Below are positions 50,418 to 53,696 of a stretch of 64,000 nt of DNA, piece by piece; position 1 is the first letter of the stretch; each line of letters starts with the position of its first letter. This stretch comes from Candidatus Fraserbacteria bacterium (GTDB lineage: Bacteria > Bipolaricaulota > Bipolaricaulia > RBG-16-55-9 > DRXL01). Location of the stretch: NCBI GenBank assembly GCA_947085185.1, contig CAMTVK010000021.1, positions 28,698-92,697 of the forward strand, written 5' to 3'. The translations under genes and the position numbers were made by a program. Below the pieces are notes generated by a model that worked only from the letters and a program-made list of their open reading frames with translations, was not told where the DNA came from and did no database searches.

Positions 50418-50996
50418 ATGACGACTATTCCCGGCTACGCCTACGGGAGCGCCGCTCCCTCGCCCGTCACAATGAAAGAGCTCAATGAGCTCAAGCAAGC
50501 CGTGCTCTTCACCCCCGAAGACGAAAGATATCTCAAGATGGCCGGCGAAGTCCTCAAAGACCAGATCGAAGAAGTGCTCGATCTGTGGTACGGCTTTGTG
50601 GGGTCCCATCCCCACCTGGTCTATTATTTCTCTGGGCCAGACGGCAAGCCCGACGCAAATTATCTTGCTGCGGTGCGCAAGCGCTTCGGCCAGTGGATCT
50701 TGGACACGTGCACCCGTCCGTATGATCAGACTTGGCTGAACTATCAGCACGAGATCGGGCTGCGCCACCACCGCACCAAGAAGAACCAAACAGATAGAGC
50801 TCGTTCAGTGCCCATCGTCCCATTACGATATCTCATTGCGTTCATCTATCCCATCACGGCGACGATCAAGCCCTTCTTGGCCAAGAAGGGGCACAGTCCC
50901 GAAGATCTTGAGAAAATGCATCAGGCATGGTTCAAGTCGGTGACGCTCCAAGTGGCGTTGTGGAGCTTCCCCTATGCGAAAGATCGAGATTTCTGA
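50418..50996 (+). CDS. protoglobin
   Basis: IPGYAYG, WYGFVGSHPHL, RFGQWILDT, YQHEIGLRHHRTKKNQTD; matches protoglobin signatures. Confidence 0.93.
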   Translation: MTTIPGYAYGSAAPSPVTMKELNELKQAVLFTPEDERYLKMAGEVLKDQIEEVLDLWYGFVGSHPHLVYYFSGPDGKPDANYLAAVRKRFGQWILDTCTRPYDQTWLNYQHEIGLRHHRTKKNQTDRARSVPIVPLRYLIAFIYPITATIKPFLAKKGHSPEDLEKMHQAWFKSVTLQVALWSFPYAKDRDF

Positions 50997-51586
50997 TGAG
51001 TGAACTCGACGAGAAGCTGGTGGCGGCGCTGGAGCGGCTCTCGCATGTGATGCGAACGCTTCTGTGGGAAGAGGCTGTGCAGAGCCGCCTCAGCCCCATT
51101 CAGATTCAGACGCTGATCTATCTGAGTTCACATCCGGAAGAGCTTTGCCGGGTAGGGCAGCTCGCCCACGAGTTCGGGCTCACCCCAGCGACCATCAGCG
51201 ATGCTGTGGATGCCCTCGCAGAGAAGGGTCTTCTTGTACGTCGGCCCTGGCCTGAAGACGGGCGCGTCTTGACGTTGTGCTTAACGACCGAGGGCCAGCG
51301 TCAAGCGCAAAGGCTTTCGCGTTGGACCGAAGCGCTTCAAGAGCAGATCGCGCCCTTCCCCCTCGCAGAGAAGGAGCGTGCCTTGAGGTTCTTCTTGGAG
51401 CTCATCGAGCGGCTCTATCGCGCGGGGATCATCACAGTTGCGCGGGTGTGCTTGACGTGCCGGTTCTTCCGCGCGAACGCCCATCCCAACTCGCAGACCC
51501 CGCACCATTGCGCATTAATGGACAAGCCCTTGGCCGAGAGCAAGCTGCGCGTCGATTGCCCCGAGCATGAAGCGGCTCATTGCTGA
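50996..51586 (+). CDS. MarR-family regulator with C-terminal Cys/His cluster
   Basis: LSPIQIQ..LAHEFGLTPATISDAV..L..KGL...DGR; CLTC...HHC...DCPEH; TGATG-coupled to protoglobin. Confidence 0.88.
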   Translation: MSELDEKLVAALERLSHVMRTLLWEEAVQSRLSPIQIQTLIYLSSHPEELCRVGQLAHEFGLTPATISDAVDALAEKGLLVRRPWPEDGRVLTLCLTTEGQRQAQRLSRWTEALQEQIAPFPLAEKERALRFFLELIERLYRAGIITVARVCLTCRFFRANAHPNSQTPHHCALMDKPLAESKLRVDCPEHEAAHC

Positions 51587-52134
51587 GCGCTCCTAGAGCT
51601 TTTTGCCAACAGCCAGATCACTCCCACCCCTAACAGCACATCCCCCACGCTGAACGCATTAGCAAACGGCACCCAGCTTGGCACCCAAAAGATATCTCCC
51701 AAAAGATTGAGCTTCGTCTGATCGCTCATCATGATGACATTCCCGAAGACGCCTTCTGTCAGCAATCTCTCGACTGTGGCTGTTCTGCCCGCAGCCCGCA
51801 GGGCTTCAAGGGACGCTGGCATATGCCCCCCATTGACGGTAATGACAAGAAAATTCGAGAGCATCCCCAGGGCCATCAACCACAGGGCCTTCTCGCGATA
51901 ATTGAGCCCCACAAAGAGCAGTAAGAGCAGATACGACCCTATGTGTAAAAACTCCATGCCCCAAGTGACGAGGGGCTTCGATCCTGCCCCTAGGGGCAGG
52001 ATCAGAATTTGCACGAGCACAGCGAGCAGCACCAGCCAGCTTGCACGCAGTTTCAGCTCTGCTAAATGGGCTATCCCTCGATGGCGTACTAGTCCAACGA
52101 GAAGCCCTAAGAGAATCGCCCAGAGGAGAACCAT
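51577..52134 (-). CDS. DUF5317 family membrane protein
   Basis: SNFLVITVNGGHMP, LGDIF and FSVGD motifs; about 5 TM segments. Confidence 0.82.
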   Translation of the reverse strand: MVLLWAILLGLLVGLVRHRGIAHLAELKLRASWLVLLAVLVQILILPLGAGSKPLVTWGMEFLHIGSYLLLLLFVGLNYREKALWLMALGMLSNFLVITVNGGHMPASLEALRAAGRTATVERLLTEGVFGNVIMMSDQTKLNLLGDIFWVPSWVPFANAFSVGDVLLGVGVIWLLAKSSRSAQQ

Positions 52135-53414
52135 AGGGGTTCTTTCAGTTCATCGGAGATGACGCGCACGAGCGCCTCGACGACCTTTGGGTCGAACTGG
52201 CGGCCGCTTTCTGCTTGGATGAGGCGCACGGCCTCGGCGGGCTCGTAGTGTCTGGGTTTCCCTTGGGATTCGCGATACAGACGATCGCTCGTCAGAGCAT
52301 GGTAGACATCAGCGACGTGGATGATGCGTGCGCCCAGGGGGATCTGTTCGCCCTTGAGGCCGTCGGGGTAGCCGGAGCCGTCCCAGCGCTCATGTTCGTA
52401 TTTGACCAAGTGGGCGGCTTCGCTGTACATCTCTAAGTTTTTGAGCAGATCGAAGCCGATGACGGTGTGTTGTTTGACGAGCTGCCATTCGGGGTCATTG
52501 AGGGGGCCGGGCTTATTGAGGATATCGTCGGGGATGCCGACCTTGCCGATGTCATGGACGAGTGCGGCGGTGCGGATCGTCTCGATTTGGTCTTCGGGGA
52601 GTTCCATCTCGCGCGCGATCTTTTCGGCCAAGTCCGCGACTTCTTCGGAGTGTTCTGCCGTGTAGGGATCGCGCTCGTGGAGCATTTTGACCATGGTTTC
52701 GATGGTGCGTTGGGTTTCCCTGCGGAGCTTGGAGTAGCCGCGCAGGGTGAGGTGGACGCCGACGGCAGGGATGAGCACCAAGAGCGTCTGCCAGGGAGCT
52801 TGGACGTAGACGACAGCAGTCAAGATCGCAATGATGCCGATAGCAAGAACTTGGAAGGGGAGATGACGAATATGGAAGGTCACGAGTTTTGAGAACCTGA
52901 TGCGCTGAGTTAGGTGAAGGATCCCAGAAACGAGGATTGTATTTGTTGCCGCGTAGCCGGCATAAGCGAGAACGAGCGGAACTATCTCAGCCAACGATTT
53001 ATACGGTGGCGAATGGCCGCCAAATGCCTGAAAGATCAAGACAGCTGCCCAACTGCTGAGTACTATTTGGCTTGTGTTGAAAGCAACACGAGAGAAAAAA
53101 TATAGCGGATCCTCTCGTAAACGATACCATCGCAAGACGATCTCAGCAAAGAGCGTTCCTAGTAGGACGCTCCAGAGCATTGCTGGCGGCCCGGCGATGA
53201 ACAGTACGGCACAGTATATGATCTCAGATGTTGACATACTGCGCCGTGAAGCAATTTCGACTTCGAAGAGGTCAGCCAAAAACGCAAGGATCGTAGCGAT
53301 CAGCACCAGCATTATCGGTGTCGGATCGTTCTGGATGCGAGGCAAATAGAAACTAAGCGGGGCAAAACTTAGAAGGACGACAAACCAGACATACACTCTT
53401 ACTTGCCAACTCAT
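52107..53414 (-). CDS. multi-TM sensor HD-GYP phosphodiesterase
   Basis: About 6-7 TM N-terminus; DPYT.EHS, HDIGK, HERWDGSGYP, GRQFDP; start at MSWQ. Confidence 0.92.
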   Translation of the reverse strand: MSWQVRVYVWFVVLLSFAPLSFYLPRIQNDPTPIMLVLIATILAFLADLFEVEIASRRSMSTSEIIYCAVLFIAGPPAMLWSVLLGTLFAEIVLRWYRLREDPLYFFSRVAFNTSQIVLSSWAAVLIFQAFGGHSPPYKSLAEIVPLVLAYAGYAATNTILVSGILHLTQRIRFSKLVTFHIRHLPFQVLAIGIIAILTAVVYVQAPWQTLLVLIPAVGVHLTLRGYSKLRRETQRTIETMVKMLHERDPYTAEHSEEVADLAEKIAREMELPEDQIETIRTAALVHDIGKVGIPDDILNKPGPLNDPEWQLVKQHTVIGFDLLKNLEMYSEAAHLVKYEHERWDGSGYPDGLKGEQIPLGARIIHVADVYHALTSDRLYRESQGKPRHYEPAEAVRLIQAESGRQFDPKVVEALVRVISDELKEPLWFSSGRFS

Positions 53415-53435
53415 GTTGGCAGCATTATATGCAAA

Positions 53436-53466
53436 ATAAAAAAGGGAGTCCAATCCGGACTCCCTT
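53436..53466 (-). terminator. intrinsic terminator after the peptide gene
   Basis: AAGGGAGTCC-GGATT-GGACTCCCTT followed by TTTTATTTT on the minus strand. Confidence 0.85.
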
Positions 53467-53487
53467 GGGGAATTTCAGAGTTTGAGC

Positions 53488-53631
53488 TTATGTCCACTTC
53501 TGACCGGCACCGCTCATGAGCACGAAGGCGCTGATGATAGCGAGAATATAGAGCACCCGCGCCCCGATCTTCTCCTTCACCCAACCGGCTACTCGCTCTG
53601 CTACCTGCCCGTTGTATTCTCCCCACTTCAT
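53488..53631 (-). CDS. unannotated 47-aa membrane peptide (putative signal precursor)
   Basis: MKWGEYNGQVAERVAGWVKEKIGARVLYILAIISAFVLMSGAGQKWT*; AAAGGAGG RBS 8 nt upstream; own promoter and terminator. Confidence 0.85.
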   Translation of the reverse strand: MKWGEYNGQVAERVAGWVKEKIGARVLYILAIISAFVLMSGAGQKWT

Positions 53632-53667
53632 GGTCGTTGCCTCCTTTATGTTGTTGTTGATGGCCAT

Positions 53668-53696
53668 ATTTTATATGCACTTGTATGTTTTGTCAA
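53668..53696 (-). promoter_or_regulatory. sigma70 promoter of the peptide gene
   Basis: TTGACA-17-TAAAAT on the minus strand. Confidence 0.8.

Follow-up and report, generated by a model that had tools for sequence, protein, structure and literature searches.

In the window (the whole 64,000-nucleotide stretch of a Candidatus Fraserbacteria contig analysed here), a small ORF for a 47-aa peptide is followed directly by a membrane HD-GYP gene and a DUF5317 gene, and this order, peptide → MASE9-type HD-GYP → DUF5317, recurs in Bipolaricaulota, Atribacterota, Thermotogota, Actinomycetota and Thermaceae. The conserved gene order points to an undescribed peptide-controlled second-messenger switch. 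The reading preferred here, to which roughly an even chance is given, has the peptide remain in the membrane, where it would be a ligand or partner to the MASE9 domain and tune the hydrolysis of c-di-GMP. The features of the locus, in order of transcription, are as follows.

53668..53696, minus strand: sigma-70-type promoter-like site of the peptide gene (TTGACA-17-TAAAAT, 11/12 consensus matches)
53640..53647, minus strand: Shine-Dalgarno sequence AAAGGAGG, with the ATG 8 nt further on
53488..53631, minus strand: 47-aa peptide ORF (ATG at 53631, stop at 53490-53488)
53432..53466, minus strand: intrinsic-terminator-like hairpin and T run, 3′ of the peptide gene (hairpin 53466-53442, 11-pair stem, 6 G-C)
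53424..53452, minus strand: second promoter-like site (TGGACT-17-TATAAT, 10/12 matches)
52107-53414, minus strand: HD-GYP gene (Pfam HD_5, E 7e-40; start taken as ATG 53414)
52710..53414, minus strand: multi-pass membrane domain at the N-terminus of the HD-GYP protein (approximately residues 1-235), read as a divergent MASE9
52107..52709, minus strand: cytoplasmic HD-GYP domain (HD_5 137 bits; predicted c-di-GMP phosphodiesterase) and stop codon
51577..52134, minus strand: DUF5317 membrane protein, 185 aa (PF17248 at 131.8 bits, cut-off 25; the match covers profile positions 2-150 of 151)

The small gene and its HD-GYP neighbour

The preliminary description had claimed a 47-aa ORF with its own promoter, ribosome-binding site and terminator, followed by a membrane HD-GYP gene and an overlapping DUF5317 gene. 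Every one of these elements was found on the minus strand at the positions it gave, and the first 28 nt of DUF5317 lie within the end of the HD-GYP gene. Promoter-like sites of this type number 2 in the 3.2-kb region, versus 1.4 ± 0.9 in shuffled sequence, and the −10 and −35 elements of the peptide gene are kept in the genus-level loci that were compared; the site at 53668..53696 may act as the promoter of the small gene. In the homologous loci compared, a GGAGG-type site stands ahead of the conserved start, and hairpins comparable to the terminator are seen in eight genus-level loci (L001-L008). A longer 59-aa reading from ATG 53667 was rejected, because this ATG abuts the −10 box and the homologues begin with MKWG behind the GGAGG site. 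As for the second promoter-like site, its −35 lies within the 3′ arm of the terminator and its −10 ends 9 nt ahead of the HD-GYP ATG; the genus-level loci have TATAAT in the same position. No Shine-Dalgarno sequence was found ahead of that ATG, and an HD-GYP mRNA from this site would be nearly leaderless. The TTG at 53453, given as the HD-GYP start by the ORF lister, was rejected because it falls within the terminator.

From a hydrophilic N-terminal part that begins MKWG, the 47-aa product runs through a transmembrane helix and a small-residue hinge (SGA) to the tail GQKWT; it contains no Cys. The ORF is kept as a protein in 35/61 relatives at E≤1; a profile found relatives in 118/184 Bipolaricaulota genomes (E≤0.01), often as 2-6 tandem copies; there are arrays with a separate start for every copy, and identical copies occur. 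The median dN/dS is 0.18 (28 pairs from 8 genus-level copies). Judged by these comparisons, the 47-aa ORF is a true gene under purifying selection. In alignment A1, the residues invariant in at least 90% of 20 homologues are K2, W3, G4, G23, L27, L30, F36, A42, K45 and W46, while the positions most variable within the genus (43, 44 and 47) are all in the tail. What the phyla have in common is the transmembrane helix, the hinge of small residues and a short tail, in nearly all cases with a Trp. The peptide had no match in Pfam or NCBIfam; each of its 126 database clusters goes by the name "hypothetical protein" and lacks a Pfam family, and an ESM Atlas look-up returned unnamed clusters only (best score 0.91). 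As a side observation, the case shows that a signalling operon can open with a conserved gene of 25-50 codons that annotation has passed over.

The HD-GYP protein belongs to its family by an HD_5 (PF13487) score well over the Pfam cut-off of 27.2, and both the HD (H287, D288) and the GYP residues (G348, Y349, P350) are invariant over 21 aligned sequences; its phosphodiesterase activity is predicted from the family. Against the MASE9 profile (PF20972), the window protein reaches 18.5 bits (E 0.0021), which is below the cut-off of 24.3 bits. However, 8/21 homologues match MASE9 at E≤0.01 (best 1.1e-12), and homologues in the same gene order score 218 bits in Thermotogota, 81.6 in Thermaceae and 31.2 in Actinomycetota, and we read the window domain as a divergent member of MASE9. 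The polar membrane residues E91, N113 and Q116 are invariant in the homologue alignment. The founding description of MASE9 argues from sequence for ligand binding within the membrane (10.1101/2021.11.05.467447).

Gene order across phyla

The arrangement is kept in at least five phyla. In 20 of the 20 loci taken from around the small ORF, the next gene downstream, in the same orientation, is an HD-GYP homologue. When a single filter was applied (a hydrophobic small ORF with a W/F tail), such an ORF was found upstream of the MASE9-type HD-GYP gene in 24/25 Bipolaricaulota, 19/19 Atribacterota, 5/10 Thermotogota and 4/9 loci of other phyla, versus a background of 13/327 (about 4%) for the other ORFs in those loci. 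By the same filter, no such ORF precedes the MASE9-type HD-GYP gene in three Chloroflexota loci, three Acidobacteriota loci or the other 5/10 Thermotogota loci.

DUF5317 can also sit apart from the other two genes, among unrelated ones. In the genomes G022, G037, G158 and G159 and for the second locus of G045, DUF5317 is encoded elsewhere, and the peptide or its array still precedes the HD-GYP gene; in one Bacillota genome (completeness not given) with the peptide and HD-GYP, DUF5317 had no match. Comparison of the loci supports a functional tie between the small ORF and the membrane HD-GYP protein, which in most genomes extends to DUF5317, and the link between peptide and HD-GYP is, by gene order, the tightest of the module.

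Membrane-resident or released peptide

The proposal is that the three genes make up a single signalling module in the membrane, through which c-di-GMP levels are set. The 47-aa product would cross the membrane once as a helix, its N-terminus being cytoplasmic and its short K-W tail exposed on the outer side, and the uncleaved peptide would then pack on the MASE9-type domain, as a small-protein subunit or intramembrane ligand switching or tuning c-di-GMP hydrolysis; the topology, the binding, the direction of the effect and the non-cleavage are all inferred. Since the small gene would have its own strong promoter, RBS and terminator here, and is present in tandem copies in other lineages, the cell could adjust how much peptide it makes without changing the amount of enzyme. 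DUF5317, presumably translationally coupled to the HD-GYP gene, would be the third membrane component and a co-sensor, whose module with two invariant Asp would face outward, near the expected position of the peptide tail.

When the three chains were predicted as a complex with the peptide as partner, the score was 0.48 and that of the best of 3 controls 0.01, which amounts to weak support, given that the mark was reached by 58/80 solved complexes and 2/110 mismatched pairs, with only 7/80 and both mismatches at ≤0.60. At least 79% of contacts are shared between runs, with a partner pLDDT of at least 63, and the score dropped to 0.01 in a control that retained DUF5317 but had another chain in place of MASE9. 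A caveat on this score is that hydrophobic helices are easily placed against membrane domains. Since L27, L30 and F36 are invariant in Bipolaricaulota, and the Atribacterota helix is near-identical even though the HD-GYP proteins of those loci share between 39 and 82% identity with the reference, the whole helix, and not the tail alone, is constrained as judged from these alignments. In addition, DUF5317 is in some genomes the N-terminal membrane domain of a fusion with PAS-GAF-GGDEF, still downstream of the peptide and HD-GYP genes, and this is the behaviour of membrane sensor modules.

Several observations argue against a membrane-resident peptide. It looks like a signal peptide, with a basic N-region, a helix, small residues and then 4-9 residues with Trp; the tail holds the positions most variable within the genus, as the mature part of a signalling peptide does; arrays of up to six copies and an intervening terminator are seen more often with secreted peptide precursors than with the subunits of an enzyme; and the filter found no upstream ORF in the three Chloroflexota loci, the three Acidobacteriota loci and half of the Thermotogota loci. 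This signal-peptide-like layout makes cleavage conceivable. The small ORF would then be a precursor that is cut at its hinge on the outer face by DUF5317 or signal peptidase I, and a Trp peptide of 4-9 residues would accumulate outside and be sensed by MASE9 or DUF5317, turning cell density into c-di-GMP hydrolysis; this is considered unlikely, though more probable than the other rivals. The "SGAG" motif near which the preliminary description had placed the cut is not itself conserved; the conserved pattern is [G/A/S]-[A/E]-small-x-K-W. The Atribacterota C-termini read A-[G/S]-G-A at W-7 to W-4 in 19/19, and in the Bipolaricaulota tails W-4 is A in 38/56 and W-5 is G, A or S in 52/56, so that by residue pattern a site of the signal-peptidase-I type fits 19/19 Atribacterota ([G/S]-G-A) and 38/56 Bipolaricaulota tails. 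However, 10/56 of the latter have Glu at the would-be −1 position, which signal peptidase I, by its established specificity, does not accept. Release is likewise favoured by the invariant K-W standing among the most variable positions in the tail, by the identical tandem copies and by the separate promoter and terminator, whereas the helix, and in Bipolaricaulota the N-terminal MKWG, are conserved as much as the tail.

The processing role that the preliminary description had assigned to DUF5317 found no backing. The AlphaFold model (pLDDT 88) shows five helices, with a small alpha/beta module inserted after the fourth and before the fifth, and N78, N94, M105, P106, D147, S162, G164 and D165 are invariant over five phyla; by the positive-inside rule on the model, the module with D147 and D165 should face outward, on the side of the tail, as release would have it. 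A Pfam scan at E≤0.1 gave PF17248 alone, the AgrB family and Peptidase_A8 (PF01252) being unmatched, and NCBIfam gave no match. Foldseek returned nothing at E≤0.001 (5dir_C ranked 4, E 3.5), and its matches to polyprenyl synthases at E >1 were judged chance helical matches. In a fold comparison, the full model resembles 6ryp_A (Z 5.3) and 5dir_A (Z 5.1) with 91 residues aligned and 19-21% identity, a weak, non-significant likeness that these chains share with others among 64 at Z≥5; the two entries, whose titles do not name the enzyme, are taken to be signal peptidase II. The likeness speaks faintly for release, but hhalign of DUF5317 with LspA alignments gave probabilities of 0.7% and 1.5%, and the C-terminal half folded alone (pLDDT 96.8) reached a top Z of 4.5, with 6ryp and 5dir not among the best 50 matches listed. 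The candidacy of DUF5317 as an LspA-like aspartyl peptidase was dropped after hmmsearch against PDB sequences, hhalign and this C-terminal-half search; a separate LspA is encoded in the same genome. In short, no Pfam, NCBIfam, fold or profile search linked DUF5317 significantly to AgrB, LspA or other peptidases. Its fusions to PAS-GAF-GGDEF and, in some genomes, to an MFS transporter also stand against a processing enzyme, as do the Bacillota genome and the split loci, where the peptide keeps with HD-GYP and not with DUF5317. The most specific form of release, in which the small ORF encodes an extracellular Trp oligopeptide, DUF5317 cuts the hinge as a new outward-facing two-aspartate membrane peptidase and MASE9 reads the peptide back, is held to be more doubtful still.

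The small ORF could also be mainly a cis-acting leader, whose translation, through a Trp codon near the stop, would control the hairpin and hence read-through into HD-GYP and DUF5317, the peptide itself being functionless. A Trp codon does lie 0-8 codons ahead of the stop in most copies, and a terminator-like hairpin separates peptide and HD-GYP in 21/37 Bipolaricaulota loci (4.0 expected) and 7/20 Atribacterota loci. This reading is nevertheless very improbable, for selection acts at the protein level over the whole length (dN/dS as above), the helix is kept across phyla while the DNA diverges, terminator-like sites occur in 0/6 Thermotogota and 0/4 other loci, there are arrays in which every copy has a start of its own, and the HD-GYP gene of the window has its own promoter-like site past the terminator. 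The earlier proposal that a separate promoter and terminator supply peptide in excess is in keeping with the Bipolaricaulota loci, where a promoter or terminator of the peptide's own and the tandem copies fit it. Short hydrophobic peptides with a strong promoter, a terminator and tandem arrays are also typical of type I toxin loci, but an unrelated selfish or antimicrobial peptide (toxin or bacteriocin-like) merely beside HD-GYP is scarcely credible, since its place upstream of one gene family is fixed in five phyla, other genes standing at the background rate of the filter, and selfish elements do not keep such synteny.

Known systems and biological meaning

Agr quorum sensing consists of the AgrD precursor, the AgrB membrane peptidase and the AgrC receptor kinase. 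The Agr-like layout seen in the preliminary description holds insofar as a real small gene, precursor-sized at about 46-47 aa and with a membrane-associating part, adjoins two membrane proteins. However, the locus has no AgrB or AgrD family match, no Cys or Ser in the peptide tail for a thiolactone or lactone ring, and no histidine-kinase receptor: the HD-GYP protein lacks a kinase domain, and the genes flanking the locus are PhoD and MarR. In other words, the receptor candidate is an HD-GYP enzyme instead of an HPK10 kinase with AgrA, and the candidate mature part lies at the extreme C-terminus, whereas that of Agr lies in the middle.

Comparable to the membrane-resident peptide preferred here are the small membrane-protein regulators of sensors, such as MgrB with PhoQ and SafA with EvgS. 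In both cases the proposal is that a single-pass protein of <50 residues contacts a sensor in its membrane or periplasmic part and alters its output, and the expression of the small protein is separable from that of the sensor. Unlike them, the partner in the module is a MASE9 c-di-GMP phosphodiesterase and not a histidine kinase, and the peptide, unrelated in sequence, is encoded directly upstream of its partner, conserved across phyla and often present in several copies.

In the DSF signalling of Xanthomonas, RpfC acts with the HD-GYP regulator RpfG, and a cell-cell signal likewise ends in c-di-GMP hydrolysis by an HD-GYP domain, so that a quorum signal with c-di-GMP output is not unprecedented. 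The DSF signal itself, a fatty acid, is detected by a histidine kinase distinct from the REC-HD-GYP protein that this kinase phosphorylates, while the HD-GYP protein of the module has its own membrane sensor domain and its candidate signal is a gene-encoded peptide. The SHP/Rgg systems and enterococcal sex pheromones of Firmicutes use short hydrophobic or signal-peptide-derived peptides; they resemble the module in their tiny ORFs, with a basic N-terminus, a hydrophobic stretch and active C-terminal residues, but depend on release by an Eep-type metalloprotease, re-import and cytoplasmic regulators, and no such genes accompany the module.

To our knowledge, HD-GYP enzymes are the least understood c-di-GMP enzymes, no MASE9 ligand is known, and MASE9 and DUF5317 are both widespread membrane domains without a known ligand or function. 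The same MASE9-HD-GYP architecture is found in TM1467 of T. maritima, the protein from which it was defined, and in HdgA of Streptomyces venezuelae, and the 218-bit Thermotogota protein is a module member; the upstream small ORF and DUF5317 go unmentioned in the accessible parts of 10.1101/2021.11.05.467447 and PMC6205966. In the literature searched (TM1467/HdgA, small membrane proteins with c-di-GMP phosphodiesterase, Bipolaricaulota c-di-GMP), no description of the module was found; DUF5317 did not appear in it, and MASE9 was mentioned only by its defining description (10.1101/2021.11.05.467447), which also treats RpfG.

A peptide genomically locked to MASE9 and DUF5317 in at least five phyla is a concrete candidate for the ligand or partner of these domains, and the phyla with the module include groups of cultivable thermophiles, Thermotogota and Thermaceae. 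If DUF5317 were a two-aspartate peptidase and MASE9 read the peptide back, a peptide autoinducer circuit would be wired directly to c-di-GMP turnover with neither kinase nor transcription factor, and it would be conserved in phyla that branch deeply and are for the most part uncultured (Bipolaricaulota, Atribacterota, Thermotogota, Thermaceae, Actinomycetota). If the peptide is released by whatever enzyme, a peptide signal would be read directly as c-di-GMP turnover; and if it acts within the membrane, regulation by small proteins would extend from histidine kinases to the enzymes of second messengers.

Gene layout of the module

The module is encoded on the minus strand of the window, where a small ORF (hereafter the peptide) is followed by the genes of a membrane HD-GYP protein and of an overlapping DUF5317 protein. 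The small ORF with its promoter, RBS and terminator, as well as the two membrane protein genes, had been noted in the preliminary description, and each of these observed details is confirmed here by the window sequence and by Pfam:

53696-53668, minus strand: promoter-like site TTGACA-17-TAAAAT, 5′ of the peptide ORF (11 of 12 matches)
Minus strand, 8 nt 5′ of the peptide-ORF ATG: AAAGGAGG
53631-53488, minus strand: 47-aa small ORF (peptide), by ORF reading
53466-53442, minus strand: 11-pair hairpin and T run, 3′ of the peptide ORF
53452-53424, minus strand: second promoter-like site TGGACT-17-TATAAT, ahead of the HD-GYP gene
ATG at 53414, minus strand: HD-GYP protein, 435 aa (HD_5, E 7e-40)
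Minus strand: DUF5317 protein, 185 aa (PF17248, 131.8 bits)

The HD-GYP protein consists of a multi-pass membrane domain and then the HD-GYP domain, and the DUF5317 gene begins 28 nt ahead of its stop codon. The -35-like hexamer of the second promoter-like site sits within the 3′ arm of the peptide-gene hairpin, and its TATAAT, which is kept genus-wide, ends 9 nt ahead of the HD-GYP ATG. Since the TATAAT lies so close and no Shine-Dalgarno sequence was found ahead of the ATG at 53414, the mRNA of HD-GYP and DUF5317 may have almost no leader. The module is flanked by a PhoD-like phosphatase gene and by a convergent MarR regulator with a protoglobin gene ahead of it. The latter two occupy 50418-51586 on the plus strand, the MarR-family regulator carrying a Cys-rich C-terminal extension, and the 3′ ends of the convergent MarR and DUF5317 genes overlap by 10 nt.

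Conservation of the peptide and of the gene order

The small ORF is a genuine gene and is conserved. It was found in 35 of 61 relatives by six-frame search (E ≤ 1) and in 118 of the 184 genomes of the phylum Bipolaricaulota, also known as Acetothermia, by a profile built from 20 copies (E ≤ 0.01). In the alignment of 20 homologues (A1), K2, W3, G4, G23, L27, L30, F36, A42 and K45 are invariant and W46 is present in at least 90%. The median dN/dS of eight genus-level copies is 0.18 (28 pairs), and the columns that vary most among them are 43, 44 and 47, on either side of the constant K-W. Many genomes contain 2-6 tandem copies, whose tails are mostly alike within one genome. The family corresponds to 126 clusters in the protein database, none with a Pfam family, and the named clusters are all "hypothetical protein" apart from one weak match labelled aconitase B. 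In addition, the N-terminus M(L)KWG of the Bipolaricaulota peptides (residues 1-4, invariant in 20/20 of A1) gives them a second K-W motif at the end opposite to the tail; the peptides of Atribacterota and Thermotogota are shorter and lack this N-terminus.

In all 20 loci fetched around peptide matches, an HD-GYP homologue lies directly downstream of the peptide, and DUF5317 comes next wherever the locus extends far enough. The order of one to six peptides, HD-GYP and DUF5317 is also kept in 20 more distant loci with three exceptions: one is without DUF5317, one has lost the peptide to a contig end, and in the third the ORF filter passed over the peptide, which the profile search did find. DUF5317 itself occurs in 155 of 184 Bipolaricaulota genomes. 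Among the 95 genomes with listed places for both, 70 have the peptide on the contig and strand of DUF5317, 0-3.5 kb upstream of it; the remaining 25 include many contig breaks, and true separations in four (G022, G037, G158 and G159), where the detached DUF5317 stands among unrelated housekeeping genes and the peptide remains with HD-GYP.

The expectation that a conserved small ORF would recur near DUF5317 and HD-GYP in other genomes holds for Bipolaricaulota, Atribacterota, Actinomycetota, Thermaceae and part of Thermotogota. In Atribacterota, DUF5317 is present in 73 of 81 genomes and adjoined by HD-GYP in 30 of 31 loci, and each of 20 wider loci has an ORF of 25-54 codons directly upstream of HD-GYP; its product has a basic N-terminus, then a helix, the residues A-[G/S]-G-A and a tail of 4-6 residues, with Trp in 19/20 tails. 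The same triad is seen in two Actinomycetota loci and one Thermaceae locus, the Thermaceae tail having Phe in place of Trp, and in one of the two Actinomycetota loci (Gaiellales, L232:1241-3076) the enzyme in the middle of this order is a MASE9-GGDEF-HD-GYP hybrid. In Thermotogota, the HD-GYP gene is directly upstream of DUF5317 in 11 of 20 DUF5317 loci, and a Trp-ending small ORF precedes it in six of those 11. Moreover, in a Bacillota MAG (G268, locus L158; completeness not given) a MASE9-type HD-GYP gene is preceded by a 32-aa ORF with the hinge A-G-G-A and then S-W; a search of this MAG gave no match to DUF5317. When one single filter was applied throughout, an upstream small ORF passed it for 52 of 63 MASE9-type HD-GYP genes; among the other ORFs of these loci that are 250 aa or longer, 13 of 327 had one. 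This difference supports the link between peptide and HD-GYP.

The HD-GYP enzyme and the DUF5317 protein

As the HD and GYP motifs are intact in 21 of 21 aligned sequences, the HD-GYP protein is, judged by its family, probably an active c-di-GMP phosphodiesterase. Its membrane domain is read as a divergent MASE9, a membrane sensor domain (PF20972): the window protein scores 18.5 bits, under the cut-off of 24.3, 8 of 21 homologues match (best E 1.1e-12), and a Thermotogota homologue whose locus has the same gene order reaches 218 bits. MASE9 was defined from T. maritima TM1467, and its authors consider that the ligand is probably bound within the membrane; DUF5317 does not occur in the main text of that paper (10.1101/2021.11.05.467447).

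The predicted model of DUF5317 (pLDDT 88) has five helices and, inserted between the fourth and the fifth, a small alpha/beta module; N78, N94, M105-P106, D147, S162, G164 and D165 do not vary among the five phyla compared. The positive-inside rule would place this module, which carries the two Asp, on the outer side. The proposal that DUF5317 cuts the precursor is not supported, for sequence, profile and fold searches reveal no significant link to peptidases. Pfam and NCBIfam gave nothing besides DUF5317 itself, and Foldseek with the full model gave no match at E ≤ 0.001. The full-library structural scan placed generic helical hairpins on top (Z 6.2), followed at ranks 36 and 49 by 6ryp (Z 5.3) and 5dir (Z 5.1), which we take to be signal peptidase II, with 91 residues aligned at 19-21% identity. 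Three further results gave this LspA lead no backing. Firstly, hmmsearch over PDB sequences returned nothing relevant; secondly, comparison by hhalign with LspA alignments of the same phyla gave probabilities of 0.7% and 1.5%; thirdly, the C-terminal half folded alone (pLDDT 96.8; top Z 4.5) has neither 6ryp nor 5dir among the 50 structural matches listed, Foldseek giving 5dir_C only at E 3.5. The only point left for a peptidase is the two invariant Asp.

The company that DUF5317 keeps also counts against a processing enzyme, that is, its fusions, its panC neighbourhood and its detached copies. In one Bipolaricaulota lineage it is the membrane domain at the N-terminus of a PAS-GAF-GGDEF protein (L059:309-3839, minus strand), and equally long fusions exist in four more genomes (L074, L076, L077 and L078), the Pfam scan covering L059 alone; these proteins of ~920-1180 aa are still encoded downstream of peptide and HD-GYP, so that this operon would supply a phosphodiesterase together with a cyclase. 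Three proteins of ~700 aa (P0121-P0123, one named source being Gaiellaceae) join DUF5317 to MFS transporter domains. Nine of the 20 Thermotogota loci (L238-L243, L246, L247 and L251) have DUF5317 next to, or overlapping, the 3′ end of a gene of 281-314 aa, and the three such genes scanned are all panC (pantoate-beta-alanine ligase).

Possible modes of action and relation to known systems

The link of the peptide to MASE9-HD-GYP is the tightest and most general within the module. The peptide helix is constrained along its full length, in Atribacterota more strongly than the neighbouring enzymes. In addition, a complex of three chains, in which the peptide was the partner, was predicted with a score of 0.48, the best of three controls scoring 0.01 (contact agreement at least 79%, partner pLDDT at least 63); this is weak support. 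Of 80 solved complexes, 58 reach the mark, as do 2 of 110 mismatches; at scores ≤ 0.60 these are only 7 of the solved complexes and the two mismatches. The control with the MASE9 chain swapped out and DUF5317 kept also scored 0.01. These three points favour a reading to which we give about an even chance: the peptide would stay in the membrane as a small-protein partner or intramembrane ligand of MASE9 and would tune c-di-GMP hydrolysis by the HD-GYP enzyme, with DUF5317 acting as co-sensor.

It is doubtful, if conceivable, that the peptide is instead secreted, in which case the module would resemble peptide pheromone systems. Such a role would suit the layout resembling a signal peptide, the variable tail positions beside the fixed K-W, the tandem copies, and the terminator between peptide and enzyme. 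Such a terminator is present in 21 of 37 loci in Bipolaricaulota, where 4.0 were expected, and in 7 of 20 in Atribacterota, where 0.6 were expected; none was found in the six Thermotogota loci or the four others. However, Glu occupies the would-be -1 position in 10 of 56 Bipolaricaulota tails, which argues against a simple signal peptidase I site. That the small ORF is purely a leader-peptide attenuator, or a selfish toxin-like peptide, is unlikely.

As a membrane-resident partner, the peptide would make the module work most like MgrB and SafA, small membrane-protein regulators of sensor kinases. The module does not belong to the Agr family, as none of the three defining Agr parts is present. 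In the DSF, RpfC and RpfG system, a quorum signal ends in HD-GYP activity, so a quorum signal with this output is not new in itself. In the literature searched (articles without their supplementary material), no description of the peptide/MASE9-HD-GYP/DUF5317 module and no mention of "DUF5317" were found, and MASE9 was found solely in its defining paper. The apparent novelty lies in the fixed association, across phyla, of a gene-encoded single-helix peptide with a MASE9-HD-GYP enzyme and DUF5317.
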